A stretch of 64,000 bases of DNA from Candidatus Poribacteria bacterium (GCA_963665235.2 CAXXLX010000001.1:1534902-1598901); one strand, 5' to 3'; shown: positions 3,046 to 32,000, numbered from the stretch's first letter. Notes: generated from the sequence alone by a model not told the origin. Translations and numbers: made by a program.

Positions 3046-3070
3046 GGGTGTGTAAAGTTTTTGTACACCC
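3046..3070 (+). repeat. dispersed word W1 (GGGTGTGTAAAGTTTTTGTAC, here closed to a hairpin by ACACCC)
   Basis: Exact or near-exact copies at 7326, 11352, 11911, 11940, 13002, 60847 and 61671. Confidence 0.85.
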
Positions 3071-3103: not shown

Positions 3104-3235
3104 CGTATAACGTGAGTTTGAAAAATTTTCCCCTCGTATGAGGAGCGGGAAACCGTTTGCCCGAATACTGGGCGATAAGTCGGCTTCTTAGGGACGATAT
3201 GTTTATAGGCATCTGGGTTTCTGCCCGCCTCTTAG
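3104..3235 (+). repeat. ~135-bp dispersed repeat (left, direct copy)
   Basis: Aligns by eye at roughly 85-90% with the reverse complement of 8395-8530. Partial relatives occur at 11735-11900, 13870-13975 and 61696-61800. Confidence 0.7.
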
Positions 3236-3472
3236 TGGTTCACTCGGTAAATTCTTATGTCTTATGAGTTTCCAGATAATAGCCGGGACGGACTACTGTG
3301 CTTGCGACGATGTCGTGTCCATATTACCATACAAACTTAGCGAGCAGACCACTTAGTGGTTCACTCGGTAAATTCTTATGTCTTATGAGTTTCCAGATAA
3401 TAGCCGGGACGGACTGCCGTGCTTGCGACGATGTCGTGTCCATATTACTATACAAACTTAGCGAGCAGACCA
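3231..3472 (+). repeat. tandem duplication, 121 bp x 2
   Basis: Units start at 3231 and 3352, with a third start at 3473. The two copies differ at only a few positions. Confidence 0.9.
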
Positions 3473-3789
3473 CTTAGTCCTGTAGGGACGATATATTTAT
3501 AGAAAACCGTTTCCGCCCCGATTCTTAGTCCCGTAGGGACGATATATAGTGAAACCTATAATTACTTTGACACTTTTGTAGAAGCACACTTTCTAGTTTG
3601 CGGACACGCCTGCACAAACCTTATTGTTTGCGCTACCAAAACCCAGTCCGGGGGTTCATAGCACACGTAGCGGGAACCGCAGGGGCTGGGGGCCCTAGGG
3701 GAAACACCCCAGCAAAAACACCCCTACAAACGGGTTGTGTGTGTGCCCTATCACAGCGTGCTCACATATTTTCAGAATTTACTATATTT

Positions 3790-5198
3790 ATACTAAAGTT
3801 TGGACAATATTCTAGATTTCAAGCAGCCTTGTCAAACGGCAGGGCGTTATCTTGCGTTTTCTCGGTCAGAATATTCTGCGAGTTTGTTTTATCTTCGGAA
3901 CTCGCAGAATATCGGCGGCACAAAATCTGTGCTTGAAGATAAGCAACCCGCAGCCCTTGTGTGAGTTTCTTCGGTTTATACCAATGAATGCCTAGTTTTT
4001 CGCAGACCTGCTCAACACTGATACGTTTTTCTGTCGTTTCCGGCATAGCAAAGATTAGCTTTGTTAGAGACGCTGCAACGAAACTCAGTTGTCCGAAGCG
4101 ATTGATGCTTTTGCGCGACTTGACCTGATACCCGCTGAAACCGAAGTGTTGCTTTGCGTCACGAAAGGCTGTCTCTATCTCCCATCTGCGGCGATAGTAT
4201 TCAACAATCTGTGGTATCTCAAGCGTCAAATCTGTCGTCCAGACACAGAAATACCGGTAAGGTTTTGACTGTCTCGTCTCGGTCTCGTTCGGATGACAAC
4301 TAGTCGGACATCTACCGGACACATTTTTGCACTATCTGTGATGCCACTTGATAGTCTTTGCCCATTAGGGAGACCACTTTATACCGCAAGCGCCGGATGT
4401 TTAGACGCGGTCCGTATTTCTTCGGACGCCCGGGGCTCCGACGCTTCGGGGCTTTAGGGCGGCGGTAAAACACCGCATTTGACTTCGCACGACACAAGAT
4501 ATGGTGTTTGAATGCCAAAACCGTCTCAAACACTTTGCGACGGGCGAACCCTCTATCAAAGATAATCAGTCCCGCAGGTATCTTTGATACGATACGCTTC
4601 AATACCGCATCCCCTTTGTCACGGACTGTCTTCGGAACAACCAGCCTGACCCACACAGGAAATAGTAAACATTGCGTCGCAGTCTCACACAATAAACCCA
4701 AAGCCGCAAACTCATGACCGAAGTGAAACTTAGATTGATTCACACGCCCCCTCTGATACTTGAAGTTGCGAAAAAAATGTAGACCATATTGACCCTTGCC
4801 GGTTTTCACAGCAGACGTGTGGTCATAAACATAAACCCAATTCGGAAATACCTGCTGTAGCTTTTCAACGAGCTTCACCGCAACAGCATCCGCACTCCAA
4901 ACACCCCGGGACAGAAACTTCGGTAAAGACCAATACTTCGTCCCGAAGACACTTGATTGATAAAGACCCGTCAGGGTGCCACCCTGGCTATTGGAAGCAA
5001 TAAAGCCAAAAATCATCGCTTGGAAAAGCGCAAAGTTTTGTGGGTTGAATAAACAACTAAAATGTGATAGAATATCTTGTAAGCAGAAAAGAAGGTTCAT
5101 TTTTATTTTCCTTTCGAAAATTTAATTTATTTTAAAATGATACCTACTTTTTTGCTTCTTGTCCATCTTAATTCTTAAAATTGTCCAAAGTTTAGTAT
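3790..5198 (-). mobile_element. IS4-superfamily insertion sequence (~1.4 kb) with terminal inverted repeats
   Basis: ATACTAAAGTTTGGACAATATT at 3790-3811 pairs with the reverse complement of 5177-5198 (ATACTAAACTTTGGACAATTTT). The repeats enclose the transposase frames. Confidence 0.75.
3819..5100 (-). pseudogene. DDE transposase (IS4/IS701-like), split into two frames
   Basis: ORFs 4312-5100 and 3819-4322 overlap by 11 nt in different frames around a CAAAAAT run. The second part has the Y-2-R-3-E-6-K signature (YYRRRWEIETAFRDAK). Confidence 0.65.
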
Positions 5199-7269: not shown

Positions 7270-7325
7270 CACCTATTCCCTCTGCATCTGCCGTACCTTC
7301 TTTACACTAAAGCCGCGTAACCTCT

Positions 7326-7346
7326 GTACAAAAACTTTACACACCC
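7326..7346 (-). repeat. word W1 (inverted copy)
   Basis: GTACAAAAACTTTACACACCC. It directly abuts the 5' truncation point of the Res fragment. Confidence 0.85.
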
Positions 7347-7365: not shown

Positions 7366-8289
7366 GTGCCTAAACCGCCCAATGCACGGAAGCGTGGTGT
7401 TGCCAAACTCAAAAAAGCGATGATACTCACACCGGAATTTGAGGCACTCTGGGAACGGATTAAGCACAAAACGCGATACAAAGTTGACATTGACACTGAA
7501 AAATTAATCGCTGAGGTCGTTGAGGCATTAGATGAAACCAACATCCAATTACCTAAAATAACGATTAGAAAGGGTATAGTGGTAATTGATGAAGAAAACG
7601 AGTTTAAGGTTCAACACACCGGAGACGGCAGCTTGGCATATCGCTTGTCGGGCCGTGCAAATGTTTTGAGGTTAATTGAGCATCGGCTGGCGCATACTAC
7701 CCCTACAATGAAATTGACGCGTCAGACCCTTTGGGAAATTCTCAATCGCACAAAAAATCAACAAGCAGTCTTAGACAATCCCCCTGAATTTTCTAAAGTT
7801 GTGGTGAAACACATCAGGAAGAAAATTATGCATCAACTGATTGATGGTGTAAAGTATGAGAAGATCGGTGAGGTGTATGAGATGCGTCAGTTCGATTGCA
7901 AGTTGGAAAGCTGGAAGGATTGCATGGTTCCCGCGTCGCGCTCCATCTACGATTACGTAATATGGGATTCGGAAGTTGAAAAGAGGTTCGTTGAAGGATT
8001 AGAAGAGCGAGACGACATTAAACTCTATCTGAAACTTCCTGCTTTTTTCACTGTGCCAACCCCTATAGGCAACTATAACCCGGATTGGGCGATAGTCAAA
8101 GAGGACAGAGATGCACATGGTGAACCGACCGGTAAAGAAAATCTCTATCTAGTTAGAGAGACCAAAAGCACAACTAATTCAGAAGACCTCCGAATCCGTG
8201 AACAACAGAAAATCAATTGTGGCGAGCGGCACTTTCGTGATGCTCTCTGCGTTGATTACGCGGTTGTTACCTCTCCTGAGGAAATCTAA
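7366..8289 (+). pseudogene. C-terminal fragment of a type III restriction enzyme Res subunit (endonuclease domain only)
   Basis: 307 aa. Contains LTPEFEALWERIKHKTRYKV and a PD-(D/E)XK-like NYNPDWAIV...LVRETKST. No helicase domain. The open frame begins just after W1. Confidence 0.5.
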
Positions 8290-8394: not shown

Positions 8395-8530
8395 GACTAA
8401 AAGGAGGATAGAAACCCAGATGCCTATAAAGATATCGTCCCTAAGGAGCGGGCTTATCGCCCAGTATTCAGGCAAACAGCCCGCTCCTCATACTAGGTGA
8501 AAACTTTTTTCAAGCTCACGTTAAGATACG
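8395..8530 (-). repeat. ~135-bp dispersed repeat (right, inverted copy)
   Basis: Reverse complement of the 3104-3235 copy. It overlaps the last 5 codons and the stop codon of the GH2 gene. Confidence 0.7.
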
Positions 8531-11185
8531 TATATGTGGAGCAGTCGGATATCTACCGCGACGGTTACCGTAAAGCGAAAGTCCACCCCTGTTTTCAGCG
8601 TTGCCTTTGACCTCATAACGCACGGTGAGCGTTTCAGCGTTGCCGTTTAAGCACTTCTCCTTATCTAATTGGACACAACACAGATAGCCGTAGTTGCCAA
8701 GGTTTTGATGGATATAGGTTAGCACACCGCGTGCATCCGCCGGGCAATCGGGAAGTGTCAAGGTTTCAACCGCAACCCCGTTAACCGAAATTGTAACATC
8801 GGATGGGTGTTTCTCCGGCTCCGTTTGCCGTGAACCGCCATTTGATGAGGAGGCTTCAAAAACGAGTTCCATCTTTGAAATCTCATCAGGATTGAGTTCA
8901 GTCAGCACGGGTATCTGATATTCAACGTATCCAGCACCTTGTGCAGTTAAAAGTTGCTCCGTTATTTCGGAGCCTGCATCCCATTTGCTGGTTGTTATTT
9001 CGCCCGGAAGATGAGAAAGCGATTGTTGCGAATCTTCGGAGAATATCTCGAAATTGATGTAATTTCGTGCCACAACCGCACCCGTTTCATCGGCTACCCA
9101 TACATGTAACGTGCCAACCGCCGAGTCAATTTCAGGGATAGCAAGTTCAAGTTGATGAACGTGCGCTACCTGATACTGTGGAAAAGGAATATCAACGTTG
9201 CCATTGACGCGGCCCCGTGTCAATTCACCGTTCGGCTGTAGTGTATCCAGTTGCCAGTGGAGCGTTGTGCCTTCAATCGTTTTGTGTGAGAAGTGACTGG
9301 CGTAGATATCCGCCTCTACGTTTTCACCGGGGGCAACCGTAGTGCCGGGGGGATAATCAATTGCGATGAAATCGAGGGTGTTGATGTCGTTGTAATCGTA
9401 TCCGAATTCCTTGACTGAGCGGTCATAGTTCATGAAGCCGTTGTGTTCCCACTCAATATCTTGCAGCTCGGTATACACATATCCACAGATTTTTGGATGG
9501 AGGCGCAACTCGTTTGTCAAATACTTAAAGCACCACGCCACGTCTTTATCACCTGCGCCAGCACTAATCCCGCCGTATTCGCTGTTTATGAGGGGGACAT
9601 CCGTTTGCACGTTATCACCCGCATAGTTAAACTTTGAGCCGGGGTATGTCTGTTCAACGACATTAGCGATATGGCCTTTGGCATGTTCGTAATTGTTGAT
9701 GTAGAAATGCCACGAGTTAATATCGGTTTCCACGTGGTCGTAGAGGCATGGCGAGTTGTCCTCGATGAGGCGAGTCGGGTCAAGCGATTTTGCGAGGTGA
9801 TACATCTCCCGCACCCATTCTTGACGGTCTGTTTGCTGTTTGTAATCTCCCCCGCCGAGTCCCCACGTTTCGTTGAAATTGCACCATGAGATGATAGAGG
9901 GATGATTGTAATCGCGTGCGATGTTTCCGCGGAGTGTCGCTTCAAACCTGTCTTTCGCTGTATCGGTGTAATGTCCGAAGTTAGGAATATCACACATAAA
10001 GAGCAGTCCTAATTTATCTGCCCAGTAGTAGAGACGCGGTTCATCCACTTTTATGTGCAGGCGCAGGAAGTTGAAACCGAATTCCTTGGCGCGTTCCACA
10101 TCCGTTCGGATTGCCTCATCGGTGAGGAAGGTATACACCCCCTCCGGGTTAAATGACTGATTAAGCGCACCTAACAGATATATCGGGCGGTTGTTAAGAT
10201 AAATGTAGTTGTAATCGCCTCCCGGTGCCTTATCAATTGAGACCTTCCGCATTCCGAAGTAGGTGTAAATCCTATCAATTGTTCCGGCTTCACCGGATAC
10301 CAATTTGAGCGTGACATCGTAGAGATTTGGCGTATCTACGTCCCAAAGTCGAAGTTTTTCTGGCGGAATATTGACCGTGAACGTTGTCTTTTCTGCGGCG
10401 GCAGTGCTTCCATTTATGCCATCACATTCCCACTGCAATTCGGTGCCTGATGCTATTTCACCCGCAATTGCCACATCAACGGTGGCCGTGCTATTATCAA
10501 TGTCCGGTGTTATGTGGCACTGTTCGATATAGGTTGCGTTTCGGGGTTCCAAAATGACAGTCTGCCAGATACCGCTAGTCCGTGTGTACCAACCGATTTG
10601 TTTTCCAGCAAGTTGTTCGCCGTGGTCCTGTGCATCGTACGCCCGTACAACGATACGCGCGGGTTCGCCGGGCGTGAGGGCATCCGTAATGTCAAATTCG
10701 AACGGGAGATATCCGTTTCCGTTTTCACCGATGCGGGTGCCATTCACCCAGACCTTTGTTTCCCAGTCAACAGCCCCGAAATTCAAAATAACGCGTTTGT
10801 CGCCCCAGTTTTCGGGAATAGAGACAGTTTTGCGATACCAACCGATGGTATGTCGGGGTTCGCCGCGGTAATTTCCCCCTCTGTCAAGTCCGCCACATGT
10901 GACGTTTTCCGGTGTGAGGTAGGCATTTGTGCTTAAATAGGTTGCGTTATCCGCGCGGTCCGCTTCTCCCCACGCTGCAAGGCTTTCCCAAGGATAGGGT
11001 ACCTGTATCTGCAAAGGAAAGTCATCAGCATTGTCAGAAAACCATTCCGCTTTTTCGCCGACATCGTCCGGGTCAAACGCAAATTCCCATGTGCCGTTGA
11101 GGTTTATCCAGTCGAGTCCTTCGGAAGTGCCGCGTTGAAAATCGGGTCGTGGATATTCTGGGCGTGGTGTTTCTACGTGTGTCAC
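8516..11185 (-). CDS. glycoside hydrolase family 2 (beta-galactosidase/glucuronidase-like)
   Basis: 889 aa with a GTG start. Has the GH2 sugar-binding pattern (VILNFGAVDWETKVWVNG...YLPFEFDITDAL) and TIM-barrel motifs FNFLRLH, WCNFNETWG, NSEYGG. Confidence 0.85.
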   Translation of the reverse strand: MTHVETPRPEYPRPDFQRGTSEGLDWINLNGTWEFAFDPDDVGEKAEWFSDNADDFPLQIQVPYPWESLAAWGEADRADNATYLSTNAYLTPENVTCGGLDRGGNYRGEPRHTIGWYRKTVSIPENWGDKRVILNFGAVDWETKVWVNGTRIGENGNGYLPFEFDITDALTPGEPARIVVRAYDAQDHGEQLAGKQIGWYTRTSGIWQTVILEPRNATYIEQCHITPDIDNSTATVDVAIAGEIASGTELQWECDGINGSTAAAEKTTFTVNIPPEKLRLWDVDTPNLYDVTLKLVSGEAGTIDRIYTYFGMRKVSIDKAPGGDYNYIYLNNRPIYLLGALNQSFNPEGVYTFLTDEAIRTDVERAKEFGFNFLRLHIKVDEPRLYYWADKLGLLFMCDIPNFGHYTDTAKDRFEATLRGNIARDYNHPSIISWCNFNETWGLGGGDYKQQTDRQEWVREMYHLAKSLDPTRLIEDNSPCLYDHVETDINSWHFYINNYEHAKGHIANVVEQTYPGSKFNYAGDNVQTDVPLINSEYGGISAGAGDKDVAWCFKYLTNELRLHPKICGYVYTELQDIEWEHNGFMNYDRSVKEFGYDYNDINTLDFIAIDYPPGTTVAPGENVEADIYASHFSHKTIEGTTLHWQLDTLQPNGELTRGRVNGNVDIPFPQYQVAHVHQLELAIPEIDSAVGTLHVWVADETGAVVARNYINFEIFSEDSQQSLSHLPGEITTSKWDAGSEITEQLLTAQGAGYVEYQIPVLTELNPDEISKMELVFEASSSNGGSRQTEPEKHPSDVTISVNGVAVETLTLPDCPADARGVLTYIHQNLGNYGYLCCVQLDKEKCLNGNAETLTVRYEVKGNAENRGGLSLYGNRRGRYPTAPHIRILT

Positions 11186-11380
11186 TTATCAGTCCATCCT
11201 TACTGTTTTCGCGCAAATAGCTGTCAGTCAATAACCGTTGTCGGGTTTCGCAAGCTCGACCCGACCTATAAATAACCAGTCATTCGCACGTGCTGAATTT
11301 GTTTTCTTTTATAATACACAATCCGCATATTTTATGCAACGATTAAAATACGAGTGTGTAAAGTTTTTGTACTATGATAG

Positions 11381-11481
11381 TGGGAAGGGTGGAAGGGTGG
11401 AAGATTGGAAGGATGGAAGAGGGTGGAAGGGTGGAAGGTGGAAGGGTGGAAGAGTGGAAAGATGGAAGGGTGGAAGAGTGG
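11381..11481 (+). repeat. GGAAGGGTGGAAG-type microsatellite-like word (W5)
   Basis: Degenerate GGAAG(G/A)(G/T)TGGAAG iterations. Related tracts at 16313-16355 (inverted), 30334-30370 and 31565-31600. Confidence 0.8.
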
Positions 11482-11910
11482 ATTTCGCTTGTGTTGTCTG
11501 AATCGCGGATGACACGGAGAACACGGATTTCGCGGAGTGTCCGATGCGTAACAATCCAAGTTTTGTGATTATAGTTTTAGCGTTTTTTTGTCTGAATGCA
11601 CGTCGCATTTGGGCGAGTACGCCACAAATCGCGGATTATCGCGGAGAACGCGGAAGACGCGGAGTTTAAGAAATGTCCGCCTATCTAGAAAGGTATCGCG
11701 TGCCCAGCACGCTCCTACATAACACGTTAAGTACAACGTGAGTTTGAAAAAAAGTTTCTTTAGTCCCAGTATTCGGGCAAACGGTTTCCCGCTCCTCAAG
11801 GACGATATCTTTATAGATAACCGTTTTCCCAACGCTTCTTAGTCCCATATTCGGGCAAACGGTTTCCCGCTCCTAGCACAAACGGACATTTATTATCAAG
11901 CTCGCGTTAA

Positions 11911-11960
11911 GTACAAAAATTTTACGCACCCAATCAGACGGGTGTGTAAAGTTTTTGTAC
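11911..11960. repeat. two W1 words in outward-facing inverted orientation separated by AATCAGAC
   Basis: GTACAAAAATTTTACGCACCC, AATCAGAC, GGGTGTGTAAAGTTTTTGTAC. Confidence 0.85.
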
Positions 11961-12005
11961 GGCTGCGATATTTTTTATGAAGAAAAATCAAACAGTTCGC
12001 AACTA

Positions 12006-12375
12006 ATACCATTTCTAATTGAAAATGTCTCTTGATTGTAGCATAAACTTCCAGTTTGTGCGCTTTATCGTAGCATAAACTTCCAGTTTGTGCTTTATTG
12101 TAGCATAAACTTCCAGTTTGTGCGCTTTATTGTAGCATAAACTTCCAGTTTGTGCGCTTTATCGTAGCATAAACTTTTAGTTTGTGCGCTTTATTGTAGC
12201 ATAAACTTTTAGTTTGTGCGCTTTATCGTAGCATAAACTTCCAGTTTGTGCGCTTTATCGTAGCATAAACTTCCAGTTTGTGCTTTATTGTAGCATAAAC
12301 TTCCAGTTTGGGTCCTCCGTTCTCCGTTTCATTTCTAACAACCGGTAATGATAGAATAATTAATAAAAATGGTAT
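12006..12375 (+). mobile_element. MITE-like element E1 with internal 32-bp VNTR (9 units)
   Basis: Ends are ATACCATTT...AAATGGTAT. A conserved 5' head (TTCTAATTGAAAATGTCTC) and a conserved ~75-bp tail flank the GTAGCATAAACTTCCAGTTTGTGC... units, which have periods of 32 or 30 bp. Confidence 0.6.
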
Positions 12376-12494
12376 AACATAACAGAGAACCAAAACATTT
12401 TTCGGAGGAAAGCGGCACGGTTTGCAACTCACCTGATTAGCCACCGATAGCGAAAGTGTGACATTTCATTTTTTTGAAATCGTCCAAGGTGGGT

Positions 12495-12995
12495 CAAAAC
12501 CGCTTACGAACATAGACGGGGCAGGCGTTCAGGAACATCCACCACCGAGAACCGAATGTCACACTTTGTGTCAAAAGTGTAACATTTACACCAGAACAGC
12601 ACACAAAAGTAGGCAGGAGTGATAACCGAAAACCGGCAGCCAAAATGGCACAACGCGTTTTTTTGTGTTGCGAAAAATATAGGGGTAAATCGCCTATAAA
12701 CATAGACGTGGCGTGGGTTTGTGCGAATACAGCACCGAGAACCAAATGTTACACTTTGTGTCAAAAGTGTAACATTTCCACCGGACCGCCTCAAAAAGTA
12801 GGAGGCAGCACGGTAAGAAAAGTCCGCAGAACTGATACCTGAAATCGGCGGTTGAAATGACACATTTTGTTTTTTTTGTGTTGCGAAAGCGAGAGTGCAA
12901 AACGGCTTACAAACATAGATAGGGCATGCGTTTGTGCACATGCAACACCGAAAACCAAATGTTACACTTTGTGTCAAAAGTGTAACTTATGCACC
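12495..12995 (+). repeat. degenerate tandem repeat, ~190-215 bp x 3, each with a 10-bp-stem hairpin
   Basis: Units start near 12495, 12683 and 12897. Each carries GTTACACTTTgtgtcaAAAGTGTAAC (one copy has GTCACACTTT). Confidence 0.7.
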
Positions 12996-13001
12996 GGTTT
13001 T

Positions 13002-13023
13002 GTACAAAAACTTTACACACCCC
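13002..13023 (-). repeat. word W1 (inverted copy) followed by AATCAGAC
   Basis: GTACAAAAACTTTACACACCC(C), then AATCAGAC at 13024-13031. Confidence 0.85.
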
Positions 13024-13096
13024 AATCAGACAAGACGATTGACATTTAAGCCAACACAGGGTAAAATAAACGTAACGTTATAAGGAGAACTCCTTC

Positions 13097-14633
13097 ATGA
13101 AAAACACTTTGTACTCCATTTTGACAGCACTGTTTGTAGCGGCAACATTTACGCCTATCAGCCTCGCCCAATATTCCCCGGGATGGGATTCCCCTGATGG
13201 CGCGAACGCGCGCATCAGAGGAGGTAAGCTCCGCATCTATGATGTAAAGTATTCACCGGATAGCACACGGGTCGCGGTGTCCGGTAGCTTCGGTGTCCGG
13301 CTCTACGATGTTCAGACAGGTGAAGAACAGGTTCAATTCATAGGGCACCGAGGTAAGAAGGTCTGGAGCGTGGCGTTTAGTCCAGATGGAAAAAGGCTTG
13401 TGAGCGGTGGACAGGATAATACCATTCGGTTGTGGGATGTGAACATAGGAAAACACATCCGAACAATCACAGAACGGGCCTGGAGCGTAGCATTTAGTCC
13501 AGATGGCACGACGATAGCAAGTGGGGATTGGATTCAGACCATTAGTCTATGGGATGTGAACACAGGGAAACGTCTATTTACACTCCCTGAAAATATAATA
13601 CCATTTTTATTAATTATTCTATCATTACCGGTTGTTAGCAATGAAACGGAGAACGGAAGACCCAAACTGGAAGTTTATGCTACGATAAAGGGCACAAACT
13701 GGAAGTTTATGCTACGATAAAGGGCACAAACTGGAAGTTTATGCTACGATAAAGGGCACAAAGAGGCACAATCTGGAAGTTTATGCTAACGAGTTGTGCT
13801 AAATGACTTTTTGTACAACATTATTTCACACAAGAACGTTTTGTCCGTGCTTCTCATTGGTTTGGACGCTCTTCAGTCCCAGTATTCGGGCAAGCAGCCC
13901 GCTCTTTAAGGACGATATCTTTATAGCTAAGCGTTCCACCTTTCTCTTTAGTCCCATAGGGACGATATGTTTGTATGACAACATCCAATATCTGTGAGAA
14001 AAACAAAAACAACCAGTTAACTGGCACAAGTCATTATGCTACAATAAAGAGGCACAATCTGGAAGATTATGCTACAATAAAGAGACATTTTCAATTAGAA
14101 ATGGTATAACTAAGCTCTGGAGCCTAGCGTTTAGCCCGGATGGAAGGATGCTTGCAAGTTGTGGCTTCGAGTACAATACCGGCAGTGGGGACAATACCAT
14201 TCAGTTGTGGGATGTGAAAACGGGAAAACACATCCGAACAATCAGAGAAGAGGCAGTTGGGAATGGCATCACAGACGTGGCGTTTAGTCCGGATGGAAAG
14301 ACTATAGCTAGTGCCAGCTCGTCTATCCTTCGGTTGTGGGATGTGAAAACAGGAAAACACATCCGGACATTTACAGAGGAGGCGGCTGGTGTCTGGAGCG
14401 TGGCGTTTAGTCCGGATGGAAAGACTATAGCTAGTGCCCATATCGGTGCTATCGGTCTGTGGGATGTGGAAACAGGAAAATTCCTACGAACAATCAGCGG
14501 ACAGGGTCATGTCGGAAGAGTGGTGGCGTTTAGTCCGGATGGAAAGACTATCGCAAGTGGGGGTTGGCGTGGGGCATATCTGTGGGATGCAAACACAGGA
14601 CAACGCCTCCGAACACTCATAAAGGATTATTGA
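13097..14633 (+). pseudogene. secreted WD40-repeat protein, interrupted by a ~510-bp MITE-like insertion
   Basis: The 5' part (13097-13597) has a signal peptide plus WD40 blades and runs into the element. The 3' part (from about 14109) resumes with KLWSLAFSPDG and more blades to the stop at 14633. Removing 508 or 511 bp restores one frame. Confidence 0.75.
13598..14107 (-). mobile_element. MITE-like element E3 (same family as E1/E2, inverted) carrying a nested ~240-bp repeat insertion
   Basis: Same termini, head and tail as E1 and E2. Its 32-bp units are GTAGCATAAACTTCCAGTTTGTGCCCTTTATC. A foreign block at about 13790-14030 is made of other dispersed words. Confidence 0.7.
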
Positions 14634-14659
14634 CACAGCATATTGCAAGGAGAAATATC

Positions 14660-16216
14660 ATGAAATATGTCAACGCTTGTCTGTTTACGACTTTTATTCT
14701 TATCACAGTCCTGCAAATCGGCTGTTTATCCACAGGGGTGATGGATAAGGCAGAGAAATTGGTCGAAGTAAAGGATTATCGGGGTGCAATAGAGCTTTAT
14801 CAAAGCATCGTTGATAGTAAATCCGGCACGGCTGCCGCACGCACAGCACAACTCGCTATCGGTGAACTCTACATTGCACATATCAATCAACCCGAACGCG
14901 GGATTGAAATCTACAAAGCGGTCATTGCTGAAGCCCCCAATAGCGATGAGGCGGCAGCAGCACACTATCGTCTCGGGATGCACGCCTATCGTCAAAAAGA
15001 TTTTGACGCAGCGCAGACCCACTTTGAGACTGTCGTTAACCAATTTCCGCCTCTACAATTGCGTCAGAATGCACACCTGATGTTGGCAAAAAGTTATGAG
15101 GAAAGGCAGAAATATCAACAAGCTGTGGAAACTTTTGAGGATTTTGTGAACCGCTATCCACGGAGCAAACGCGCTCCCCAGGCCCGCGCCAATAAAGCAC
15201 GAATACAACGCAAATTCCTTAAAAAAGACTTAGAAGCATCGGTTGAACCCAATGCTTCTGAGGGCTCTATAACCCCCATCAGGAAAGGTCAGATTAAGGT
15301 TAATAACATACAGTATTCACCCGATGGCACACACCTTGTGGTGGCGGGCAACTTCGGGATTTTGCGCTATGATGTTCAGACAGACGACGCACCTGTCAAA
15401 TTCACAGGGCACTCAGGGAGAGCCTGGCGCATCGCGTTTAGTCCAGACAAAGTGCTGTTCGCAAGTGTCAGTTCGTCCGGGGAAATTTATCTGTTGGATG
15501 TGAACACGGGAGAACGTCTCCGAACAATTAAAGAGCCAGAATTAGGCATCTCGGGTATAGCATTTAGCCCGGATGGCAGGACGCTAGTAAGTGGAAACGC
15601 TGACCATACTGTCTGTGTATTCGATGTGGACACAGGGAAACGGCTCCGAACCCTCATAGGGCATACAGCTCCCATCTTTAGCGTGGCGTTTAGTCCGGAT
15701 GGCAGGACAATCGCTACGGGTAGTTCTCGTGAGGATAGCACAGTGCGTTTGTGGGACGCACGGACAGGAGAACACCTCCGAACTCTCACGGGGCATGCGT
15801 ATCATGTCTTTAGTGTAGCGTTTAGCCCGGACAGGACGCTGCTTGCAAGTGGTGGTGGTCTTGACGGAACGGTCCGCTTGTGGGATGTAAACACGGGAAA
15901 ACAGGTCCGAACACTTCCAGAGGACCATCCGGGAGATACTATAGGTACGTGGAATCGTATGAGTCCGCACCAATGCGTAGCTTTTAGTCCGGATGGCAGG
16001 ACGCTCGCAAGTTTCGGTGGTTTGGGCATTCGTTTATGGGATGTGAAAACAGGCAAACTTCTCCGCAAACTCAGGGAGCGCAATGGCAGTCATGGTATTA
16101 GTGTGGTGGCGTTTAGTCCGGATGGCAAGACGCTAGCAGTTTGCGCTAGCGACGAAGTCGATCTGTGGGATGTGAAAACGGGAAAACAAATTCGAAGACT
16201 CATAATTCCATTTTGA
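14660..16216 (+). CDS. TPR + WD40-repeat lipoprotein
   Basis: ATG at 14660 follows AGGAG. Lipobox-like LQIGC. The N-terminal half has TPR-like helices. The C-terminal half has about 7 WD blades (AFSPDG...LWDV.TG). Confidence 0.8.
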   Translation: MKYVNACLFTTFILITVLQIGCLSTGVMDKAEKLVEVKDYRGAIELYQSIVDSKSGTAAARTAQLAIGELYIAHINQPERGIEIYKAVIAEAPNSDEAAAAHYRLGMHAYRQKDFDAAQTHFETVVNQFPPLQLRQNAHLMLAKSYEERQKYQQAVETFEDFVNRYPRSKRAPQARANKARIQRKFLKKDLEASVEPNASEGSITPIRKGQIKVNNIQYSPDGTHLVVAGNFGILRYDVQTDDAPVKFTGHSGRAWRIAFSPDKVLFASVSSSGEIYLLDVNTGERLRTIKEPELGISGIAFSPDGRTLVSGNADHTVCVFDVDTGKRLRTLIGHTAPIFSVAFSPDGRTIATGSSREDSTVRLWDARTGEHLRTLTGHAYHVFSVAFSPDRTLLASGGGLDGTVRLWDVNTGKQVRTLPEDHPGDTIGTWNRMSPHQCVAFSPDGRTLASFGGLGIRLWDVKTGKLLRKLRERNGSHGISVVAFSPDGKTLAVCASDEVDLWDVKTGKQIRRLIIPF

Positions 16217-16357
16217 TACGACCGCGCACCGTTGTAGGAGCGTGCTGTGCACGCGACCCCTTTCTTCTGTAGGAGCGAGTTGCGCTCACGCTCTTTTGAC
16301 TTTGTTCCTCCCGATATCCCCTCTTCCATTCTTCCATTCTTCCATTCTTCCACCCTG

Positions 16358-31034: not shown

Positions 31035-31408
31035 ATACCATTTCTAATTGAAAATGTCTCTTTGTAGTAGCATAAACTTCCAGTTTGTGCACTTCTTCGT
31101 AGCATAAACTTCCAGTTTGTGCACTTCTTCGTAGCATAAACTTCCAGTTTGTGCACTTCTTCGTAGCATAAACTTCCAGTTTGTGCACTTCTTCGTAGCA
31201 TAAACTTCCAGTTTGTGCACTTCTTCGTAGCATAAACTTCCAGTTTGTGCACTTCTTCGTAGCATAAACTTCCAGTTTGTGCACTTCTTCGTAGCATAAA
31301 CTTCCAGTTTGTGCACTTCTTCGTAGCATAAACTTTTAGTTTGGGTCTTCCGTTCTCCGTTTCATTTCTAACAACCGGTAATGATAGAATAATTAATAAA
31401 AATGGTAT
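31035..31408 (+). mobile_element. MITE-like element E2 with nine 32-bp units (eight identical, the last variant)
   Basis: Same termini, head and tail as E1. Units of GTAGCATAAACTTCCAGTTTGTGCACTTCTTC start every 32 bp from 31067 to 31323. Confidence 0.65.
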
Positions 31409-31600: not shown

Positions 31601-32000
31601 ATCGTGTAATGTATCGCGTGCACAGCACGCTCCTACAGAAATCGTGTAATGTATCGCGTGCACAGCACGCTCCTACAGAAATCGTGTAATGTATCGCGTG
31701 CACAGCACGCTCCTACAGAAATCGTGTAATGTATCGCGTGCACAGCACGCTCCTACAGAAATCGTGTAATGTATCGCGTGCACAGCACGCTCCTACAGAA
31801 ATCGTGTAATGTATCGCGTGCACAGCACGCTCCTACAGAAATCGTGTAATGTATCGCGTGCACAGCACGCTCCTACAGAAATCGTGTAATGTATCGCGTG
31901 CACAGCACGCTCCTACAGAAATCGTGTAATGTATCGCGTGCACAGCACGCTCCTACAGAAATCGTGTAATGTATCGCGTGCACAGCACGCTCCTACAGAA
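31601..32000 (+). repeat. perfect tandem array, 40 bp x 10
   Basis: ATCGTGTAATGTATCGCGTGCACAGCACGCTCCTACAGAA is repeated ten times without a mismatch. Each unit holds the W4 hairpin GCGTGCacaGCACGC. Confidence 0.95.

Follow-up and report, generated by a model that had tools for sequence, protein, structure and literature searches.

We analysed a 64,000-nucleotide stretch (below, the window) of a 4.36-Mb contig from a Candidatus Poribacteria bacterium (GCA_963665235.2, CAXXLX010000001.1:1534902-1598901), in which a 1.9-kb intergenic region separates a GH2 glycosidase gene on one side from a WD40-repeat gene on the other. An exact database look-up of the two flanking proteins found neither on record. 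A preliminary description of the window had drawn attention to a non-coding segment within this region that is bounded by inverted copies of a short word, W1, and flanked by a direct repeat, and had proposed that W1 is the terminal inverted repeat of a non-autonomous transposable element family carrying other repeats as cargo. The segment at 11940-13022, which we call the element, is the subject of this report. The region contains the following features (coordinates are counted from the first nucleotide of the window; TSD, target-site duplication; VNTR, variable-number tandem repeat; IS, insertion sequence; loci outside the window carry L numbers, and proteins P numbers).

8516-11185, minus strand: GH2 glycosidase gene, the left boundary of the intergenic region
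11352-11372, plus strand: old W1 end facing the divergent GH2 gene, one mismatch, conserved in relatives
11911-11931, minus strand: older degenerate W1 end, two mismatches, 15 nt upstream of the -35 box before the new insertion
11931-11939: left TSD copy, CAATCAGAC, its first C shared with the older W1 end
11940-11960, plus strand: left W1 copy (terminal inverted repeat), a perfect 21-mer with the same sequence as a Poribacteria ISKra4-type IS has at its end
11961-12003, plus strand: leader (ggctgcga tattttttatgaagaaaaatcaaacagttcgcaac), whose part from 'tatttttt' on (11969-12003) is also conserved in L056 and L059 (homologous elements)
12004-12377, plus strand: nested VNTR-bearing secondary element including its TAA duplications, with defined ends, a 32-bp unit in 8.9 copies and empty sites
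12378-13001, plus strand: element body of three tandem ~200-bp units (~12395-12600, ~12601-12800 and ~12801-13001)
13002-13022, minus strand: right terminal inverted repeat, the perfect reverse complement of W1 and the promoter-proximal end
13023-13031: right TSD copy, CAATCAGAC, matching the left copy
13039-13067, plus strand: sigma-70-type promoter TTGACA-N17-TAAAAT, 11 of 12 consensus positions
13097-13720, plus strand: WD40-repeat gene, downstream of the promoter at 13039-13067 and truncated by a VNTR element at ~13598-14106

W1 is the 21-mer GGGTGTGTAAAGTTTTTGTAC. It stands on the plus strand at 11940-11960 and as its exact reverse complement (W1rc) at 13002-13022, so that inverted W1 words bound the segment as the preliminary description had it; the window holds eight copies at up to three mismatches, where shuffled sequences lead one to expect 0.01. 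The 8-bp direct repeat that had been reported, AATCAGAC, is indeed present at 11932-11939 and 13024-13031, but its length needs correction. The nucleotide between the right W1 and the right AATCAGAC, C13023, pairs with C11931 on the left side (which doubles as the final base of the older W1 end, the degenerate one at 11911-11931), and the true flanking repeat is the 9-bp CAATCAGAC, at 11931-11939 and 13023-13031. The probability of a perfect 9-mer arising by chance among the four inverted W1 pairs of the window is 1.5e-5. The element measures 1,083 bp, of which 712 bp remain when the nested VNTR element is left out, and its interior is made up of the 43-nt leader, the 32-bp VNTR block (8.9 copies) and the three ~200-bp units.

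As previously stated, this interior holds no credible gene, and its open reading frames (ORFs) are spurious. The longest, at 12504-12977 on the minus strand, would encode 157 amino acids (aa) without any Pfam domain, and every database relative of it is a read-through of this repeat in another copy, beginning in an unrelated flank and continuing through W1. Protein identity to these relatives is 49-63%, versus a DNA identity of 77-84% (at L059, the one relative whose DNA was read). The element is thus not an autonomous IS, because no transposase of its own lies between the inverted repeats, nor is it a composite transposon or mobile insertion cassette, because it contains repeats and a nested small element but no passenger genes.

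A scan for W1 that sampled one genome per species returned, among the matches listed, Candidatus Poribacteria assemblies only, with at least 55 loci (L001-L055). In these loci and the window, we searched for inverted W1 pairs with up to four mismatches and up to 6 kb between the arms. Perfect 9-bp direct repeats lie directly outside the ends of 12 of the 52 pairs, where 2e-4 would be expected, and all 12 differ in sequence. The units concerned span 170-1,469 bp. They include full-length IS copies described below (GAGAAGATT, TGCTTTGTC, CAACTGCTG and AGCGCGGTC), gene-less units of 170-677 bp (AAACCGTTC, ACGTCCATT, TTCCTTTTA, TTTGGAAAC, GTCTAAATC, TGACAGTAC and TTCAATTTA) and the window element with its CAATCAGAC. 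Two further pairs carry 8-bp repeats, and several others match at 7-8 of 9 positions. Since the perfect duplications differ from unit to unit, AATCAGAC and the 9-mer that contains it are not part of the W1 repeat. The outside flanks of the 70 W1 copies that match a degenerate pattern are mutually unrelated, AATCAGAC adjoins W1 at this locus only, and the 70 copies sort into several families by their subterminal sequence. The catalogue of W1 copies and flanks that had been recommended as a check therefore turned out in favour of the flanking repeat as a TSD.

A W1-flanked transposase gene, which had likewise been suggested as something to look for, occurs in several Poribacteria genomes, in which inverted W1 copies 1,469 bp apart enclose a single 439-aa ORF. 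This 1,469-bp IS, found at L013, L029, L044, L050 and L052, ends in 23-bp perfect inverted repeats that start with W1; copies within and between two genomes share 99-100% identity, and other genomes have variants at 84-91%. The 439-aa ORF scores 233 bits against the NCBIfam model NF033572 'ISKra4 family transposase' (cutoff 205), with weaker matches to ISLre2 (80 bits, cutoff 200), ISH6, a Mycoplasma integrative and conjugative element (ICE) transposase and Pfam UPF0236. Because this W1-bounded ORF passes the NF033572 cutoff, W1 is the terminal inverted repeat of an ISKra4-type IS. It also terminates many small gene-less derivatives, and the proposal that W1 is the terminal repeat of a non-autonomous element family thus gains both its gene-less members and the IS that shares their ends.

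The ISKra4 group comprises p-MULT 4 Mutator-like DDE transposases (ISKra2/4/5/6, ISCasp2/3 and others; Guerillot et al. 2014, PMC3942029). Its inverted repeats are 18-39 bp long and have a terminal C that is conserved (G on the opposite strand), its direct repeats measure 8-9 bp, and the orientation of insertion follows the asymmetry between the two inverted repeats (PMC3942029). The window element has perfect 21-bp terminal inverted repeats (GGGTGTGTAAAGTTTTTGTAC at one end, ...CACACCC at the other), which fall within the 18-39-bp range, and the 9-bp CAATCAGAC on both sides. Its ends are identical to those of a transposase-encoding IS, an identity established through other Poribacteria genomes rather than the source genome.

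The position of the element also follows a pattern. Among 101 W1 ends, 12 have an exact TTGACA 15-18 nt outward of the terminus (7 of them at exactly 16), as compared to 0.29 expected (P = 5e-16), and the remaining 56 offsets together contain just four occurrences. When one mismatch to TTGACA is allowed, the count is 19 ends versus 4.2 expected. Most of these TTGACA flanks have a good -10 box (TATAAT, TACAAT, TAAAAT or similar) after exactly 17 nt; the sequences between the two motifs differ among flanks, and the promoters are therefore independent. All five elements that have both a perfect TSD and a promoter flank show the same order of terminus, 9-bp TSD, 7 nt and TTGACA. In every derivative family, it is always one and the same end, the better-conserved one, that is turned towards the promoter (5/5, 3/3 and 2/2). 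The right end of the window element lies 16 nt upstream of the -35 box in TTGACA(13039)-N17-TAAAAT(13067), which is the best promoter match in the region.

We had entertained a new promoter-recognition mechanism as the source of the 16-nt spacing, and dropped it, as this is already published behaviour of the ISKra4 group: TnGBS/ISLre2 elements and those of the ISKra4 group insert upstream of sigmaA -35 boxes at a distance of 15-17 bp (13-17 bp by the criterion used in scoring), and ISKra4-group elements do so at a substantial fraction of sites (PMC3942029). The promoter spacing thus reflects a target choice already known for the ISKra4 group, which the present data extend to derivatives without genes. 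Two further observations concern the W1 ends themselves. W1 (e.g. at 11940-11960) has a TTGTAC 15 nt inward of its terminus (TTGTCA/TGACAA in some variants), so that a target TTGACA 16 nt outward loosely mirrors an inverted W1 end, possibly by coincidence. At L008 (7865-7910), a minimal unit of 46 bp consists of W1, 4 nt and W1rc, and one of its ends is 16 nt upstream of TTGACA.

The same rule accounts for the older W1 end that adjoins the element. Before the insertion, the old end at 11911-11931 sat 15 nt upstream of the -35 box of the WD40 promoter; a further hit at 16 nt that duplicates 9 bp therefore has to start one base inside the old end and leave an 8-bp spacer, as is observed. L027 mirrors this layout with a different TSD, as a degenerate W1 end is followed by 3 nt, TTCCTTTTA, a 312-bp element and TTCCTTTTA again. 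The spacers of abutted W1 ends measure 8 bp in L037, 7 bp in L059 and 12 bp in L027. On the other side of the intergenic region, the W1 end at 11352-11372 is 12 nt from a -35-like TTGCAT in the window and exactly 16 nt from it in L057, where the putative GH2 promoter reads TTGCAT-N17-TATTAT and its -35 box matches 3/6 consensus positions. Its presence in L057 shows this W1 copy to be old, and we tentatively place it there 16 nt upstream of the GH2 promoter. Intergenic regions between divergent promoters are repeat mosaics here because the same promoter is hit repeatedly.

The body of the element could be traced through relatives. Its three ~200-bp units are 72-81% alike, and each ends in the hairpin AAATGTTACACTTTGTGTCAAAAGTGTAACATTT with a 14-bp stem; outside the hairpin, they diverge by 20-28%. 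Single units fold modestly better than shuffled sequences (z = -2.8), and no further copy of the units was found in the window. Probing with the longest of the spurious ORFs that run across the units, we recovered two relatives, P0122 and P0123. P0122 led to L059, a 4,990-bp contig of another assembly, in which W1 (3362-3382) and W1rc (3867-3887) enclose two units and the leader. The element so bounded, of 526 bp, shares 77-84% identity with that of the window, has no VNTR, lies in an unrelated context and is abutted, with 7 bp between them, to another W1 element (3895-4241) of a different kind. A perfect 9-bp TSD, CGAATAAAT, flanks the outer pair at 3362-4241 (3353-4250 with the TSDs included), and the two abutted elements apparently moved as a single composite. 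The hairpin-unit end lies 16 nt upstream of TTGACA-N17-TATAAT, and is the same end as in the window. Because the L059 relative carries the units within a W1-bounded unit with its own TSD, the hairpin units are the family's own body, in a mobile W1-ended family with a variable number of units, and not captured DNA.

The second relative, P0123, lies outside the window on the same contig. It reads through from its flank into W1, the units and the VNTR tail, and there is therefore at least one further copy of the hairpin units in the source genome, diverged and also with a nested VNTR element. The flank of P0123 (which is known as a protein) reads MLPLIGLNV versus ILPCVGLNV in the window, and its promoter is homologous to the window's. 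Adjoining it is P0124, an intact 342-aa WD40 paralogue in the source genome that is 85% identical. Dispersed copies at different sites, as expected of a MITE (miniature inverted-repeat transposable element), are thus provided by L059, L056 and P0123. Of the strict MITE features, terminal inverted repeats, a TSD and a non-coding interior are present, while the usual length is below ~500 bp.

The VNTR block has a separate history. The VNTR element at 12007-12374 is composed of a leader, a spacer-less 32-bp unit in 8.9 copies and a tail, has the ends TACCATTT / AAATGGTA and is flanked by a TAA duplication (12004-12006 and 12375-12377). The homologous elements of L056 and L059 contain the uninterrupted site, gttcgcaacTAAcataacag. 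Because of this duplication and these two empty sites, the block is a second, separately mobile small element nested at TAA inside the W1 element. Other copies are at 31036-31408 and, on the minus strand, at 14106-13598; the latter cuts the WD40 gene at ~13598, and ~45 terminal residues of the 207-aa product are translated repeat. With inverted ends, a tandem array, multiple intergenic copies and evidence of insertion, 12007-12374 has the properties of a minisatellite-bearing MITE. It resembles BrickBuilt of Porphyromonas gingivalis (Klein et al. 2015, PMC4596501), which also combines a leader, a spacer-less minisatellite, a tail and short inverted ends, and also has multiple intergenic copies. 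The likeness is one of architecture; the units measure 23 nt in BrickBuilt (PMC4596501) and 32 bp here. As compared to BrickBuilt, the 3-bp TAA duplication and the two empty sites of the nested element show insertion directly. The element does therefore contain other repeats, as the preliminary description said, although these are not cargo: the ~200-bp units belong to the element itself, and the VNTR block is an independent mobile element nested in it.

Since all testable features of the ISKra4 group are present except for an encoded transposase, we conclude that 11940-13022 is very probably a non-autonomous, MITE-like derivative of an ISKra4-group IS, inserted upstream of the WD40 promoter. 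Such an element would have kept only the 21-bp terminal inverted repeats (W1), which are the parts recognized by the transposase, and an ISKra4-group transposase encoded elsewhere would have moved it in trans. A 9-bp staggered cut of the target, followed by repair, would have produced the CAATCAGAC duplication. By inserting 16 bp ahead of the -35 box in a sigma-70-type promoter, the element would have spared both the core promoter and the gene. The same promoter would have been hit before, at 15 bp, by an earlier W1 element, the newer copy then landing flush against the old end, and successive hits of this kind would yield the W1rc-8 bp-W1 junction. The VNTR element, an unrelated second small element, inserted at TAA within the W1 element. 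The anatomy of the element with its ends and TSD, the TSD rule across the family, the transposase partner in other Poribacteria genomes, the promoter spacing and the nested insertion are shown by the data, and we infer mobilization in trans, the order and timing of these events, and any effect on expression. Moreover, the insertion is arguably more recent than the divergence of the two genomic copies, because perfect ends and a perfect TSD stand against ~20% divergence between them: with 10% change along each lineage, 60 nt would survive unchanged with a probability of ~0.002.

Several points weigh against this conclusion. A tblastn search did not find the IS transposase in the window, and we only infer a source elsewhere in the genome. 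The length of 1,083 bp exceeds the typical size of a MITE. At P0123, the W1 terminus is 7 nt from TTGACA, which is nine fewer than in the window and outside the simple model. Finally, neither metagenome scans nor orthologous loci yielded an empty-site allele of the 11940-13022 insertion, a check that the preliminary description had put forward. The uninserted site would read ACGCACCCAATCAGACAAGACGATTGACA, that is, old W1 end, single 9-mer and promoter, and the insertion model predicts an ancestral allele of old W1rc-AATCAGAC-AAGACGATTGACA with nothing between. Scans of metagenomes with the right-flank pattern AATCAGACAAGACGATTGACATT, which fits filled as well as empty sites, and with the hairpin-core pattern CACTTTGTGTCAAAAGTGTAAC both gave zero matches. 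GH2 orthologues led to three loci: L056 (99% protein identity), L057 (94%) and L058 (87%). The entire 11404-16357 segment, including the WD40 segment, is absent from L057 and L058, which therefore cannot serve as empty sites. L056, the closest strain, stops inside the repeats; in its homologous element, the left flank is a different one, within a truncated VNTR element, and W1 is followed by 215 extra bp. This difference may reflect an independent insertion, a rearrangement or an assembly artefact or misjoin. No WD40 orthologue was found outside the source genome, and the only close homologue is the paralogue P0124.

The repeats flanking the element could have arisen in other ways. The preliminary description itself cautioned that W1rc plus AATCAGAC might be a duplicated unit, in which case W1rc and (C)AATCAGAC would be a ~30-bp block copied by local or segmental duplication, or part of a longer repeat, and not a TSD made by transposition. 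Both 9-mers do follow W1rc-like sequence, so that the direct repeat can be extended to ~35 nt with ~85% identity and one indel, and segmental duplication does occur around these elements, as with P0123 beside a paralogous WD40 promoter and gene (P0124). However, the extension past the 9-mer is W1 itself, the 70 other W1 copies with their unrelated flanks lack AATCAGAC, and L027 has the same architecture with a different 9-mer. Block duplication also leaves unexplained why the opposite W1 at 11940 starts right after the left 9-mer, and why the length of the repeat equals the family's 9 bp. Furthermore, the perfect inverted repeats (42 nt) and TSD (18 nt) would be unlikely to outlast the ~20% divergence between copies (the ~0.002 given above). 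The caveat thus did not stand up, and we regard this origin as very unlikely. A related idea is that W1rc-8 bp-W1 is the preserved junction of a circle intermediate or tandem dimer, with 11352-13022 being one rearranged composite. Prokaryotic Mutator-like elements form circles in which the ends are separated by 6-10 bp (PMC3942029), and abutted W1 ends recur with spacers of 7, 8 and 12 bp (L059, L037 and L027), in L059 within a two-element composite that appears to have moved as one, inner junction included, with its own 9-bp TSD. Nonetheless, the abutted elements at the window locus differ in content, the left end is degenerate while the right end is perfect, and the outer pair 11352/13022 has no TSD. 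The spacer is the sequence of the far-right flank, which a circle junction does not predict, whereas successive promoter hits predict spacers of 9 +/- 2 bp, which fits L059 (7), L037 (8) and the window (8), with L027 (12) just outside. A preserved junction is accordingly a highly improbable origin of this arrangement.

It is also conceivable that W1 and the hairpin units are regulatory or RNA modules of the host, such as an operator with insulating hairpins or a small RNA cluster. The fixed distance of W1 ends upstream of promoters, with the same end facing the promoter in each derivative family, would fit this idea, as would hairpins that are terminator-like and units that fold better than shuffles. 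Yet the same ends bound a transposase gene and have TSDs of varied sequence, and insertion near promoters with a biased orientation is already accounted for by the target choice of this transposase group. The whole window has no Rfam match at gathering thresholds (and no tRNA genes were found in it), and the units diverge by 20-28% apart from the hairpin; we give host modules hardly any credence. None of these three alternatives accounts for the start of W1 immediately after a 9-mer that is found again at the far end. A different proposal, which concerns what the derivatives do, is that Poribacteria have gathered them as oriented upstream cassettes (at ~-52) that modulate or insulate many promoters, among them hairpin-unit arrays of variable copy number and nested VNTRs, with copy number serving for tuning or phase variation. 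We think this improbable; if it were true, the fixed orientation despite perfect inverted repeats (window, L059) would reflect selection and not asymmetric recognition of the ends.

Other parts of the window and its surroundings also show repeats and rearrangements, and the source genome is unusually rich in mosaic intergenic repeats. The 5.6-kb segment 2942-8531, from GH2 to a 2-hydroxyacid dehydrogenase gene, is absent in L057 and L058 and mostly absent in L056. Its contents are a W1 end (position 3046), a 44-nt remnant of an ISKra4-type IS end at 7304-7346 (the sole IS trace that an IS search found in the window), a split DDE transposase (DDE_Tnp_1 / DDE_5) at 3819-5100 that is unrelated to the ISKra4-type IS, two ORFs without a Pfam match and a RE_endonuc-domain protein at 7366-8289. 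We considered 3046(+)/7346(-) as a 4.3-kb element with cargo and rejected it, as it has no TSD, its subterminal sequences differ and the DDE transposase inside is unrelated. An 8-bp microsatellite of GGAAGGGT type lies at 11383-11482, and an inverted copy, TCTTCCAT x 3.9, at 16322-16352. These arrays bracket the 4.9-kb 11404-16357 segment missing from L057, which suggests an inversion or insertion bounded by the arrays. More intergenic tandem arrays are found at 31601-32000, 57543-57861, 3231-3478 and 60928-60977; one intergenic array has a 40-bp unit in 10.0 copies with 100% identity. Short hairpin repeats recur as well, e.g. tattcgggcaaacggtttcccgctcc at 11770, 11848 and 61700.

Among known systems, the element is closest in its ends and target to ISKra4-group IS. 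It shares its terminal inverted repeats with the Poribacteria IS whose transposase passes NF033572, and has near-perfect inverted repeats of 21-23 bp ending in GGG/CCC, 9-bp direct repeats and an insertion 16 bp upstream of a sigma-70 -35 box. It differs in lacking a transposase gene and in having only the ends in common, with no subterminal similarity, and Poribacteria are not among the phyla discussed for the group (PMC3942029). TnGBS/ISLre2 elements make the same target choice, 15-17 bp upstream of sigmaA promoters, and turn one defined end towards the promoter, according to 2009 work as cited in PMC3942029, and the partner transposase weakly matches ISLre2 (80 bits). However, they belong to another transposase clade, the partner's ISLre2 score is far under the cutoff of 200, and the window element is small, non-coding and free of conjugation genes. 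Bacterial MITEs such as Correia elements and MITEAba12 are similarly non-coding and intergenic, with IS-type inverted repeats, a TSD of fixed length and several sequence families that share the ends of one IS. The window element is distinguished from them by its length (1,083 bp, or 712 bp without the nested element, versus less than ~500 bp), its body of tandem ~200-bp units, and a promoter-directed target choice inherited from the parent IS. Pack-MULEs, too, are non-autonomous members of the Mutator superfamily with ~9-bp TSDs and a preference for the 5' ends of genes, but they are eukaryotic and contain captured gene fragments, whereas the window element is prokaryotic and contains its own repeats and a small nested element. 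A limited literature search found neither published non-autonomous derivatives of the ISKra4 group nor ISKra4-group elements in Poribacteria.

The element is a clear but ordinary case of a known kind of element, which will not surprise specialists, and knowledge of the transposition mechanism is left unchanged. It nonetheless provides a well-bounded example of non-autonomous derivatives in the promoter-targeting ISKra4 group. Poribacteria are an uncultivated phylum of sponge symbionts whose mobile DNA has been little described. For annotation, W1 (21-23 bp) together with a 9-bp TSD reliably delimits these elements. In addition, because a -35 box stands ~16 nt beyond the W1 end, W1 ends help to locate sigma-70-type promoters in Poribacteria.

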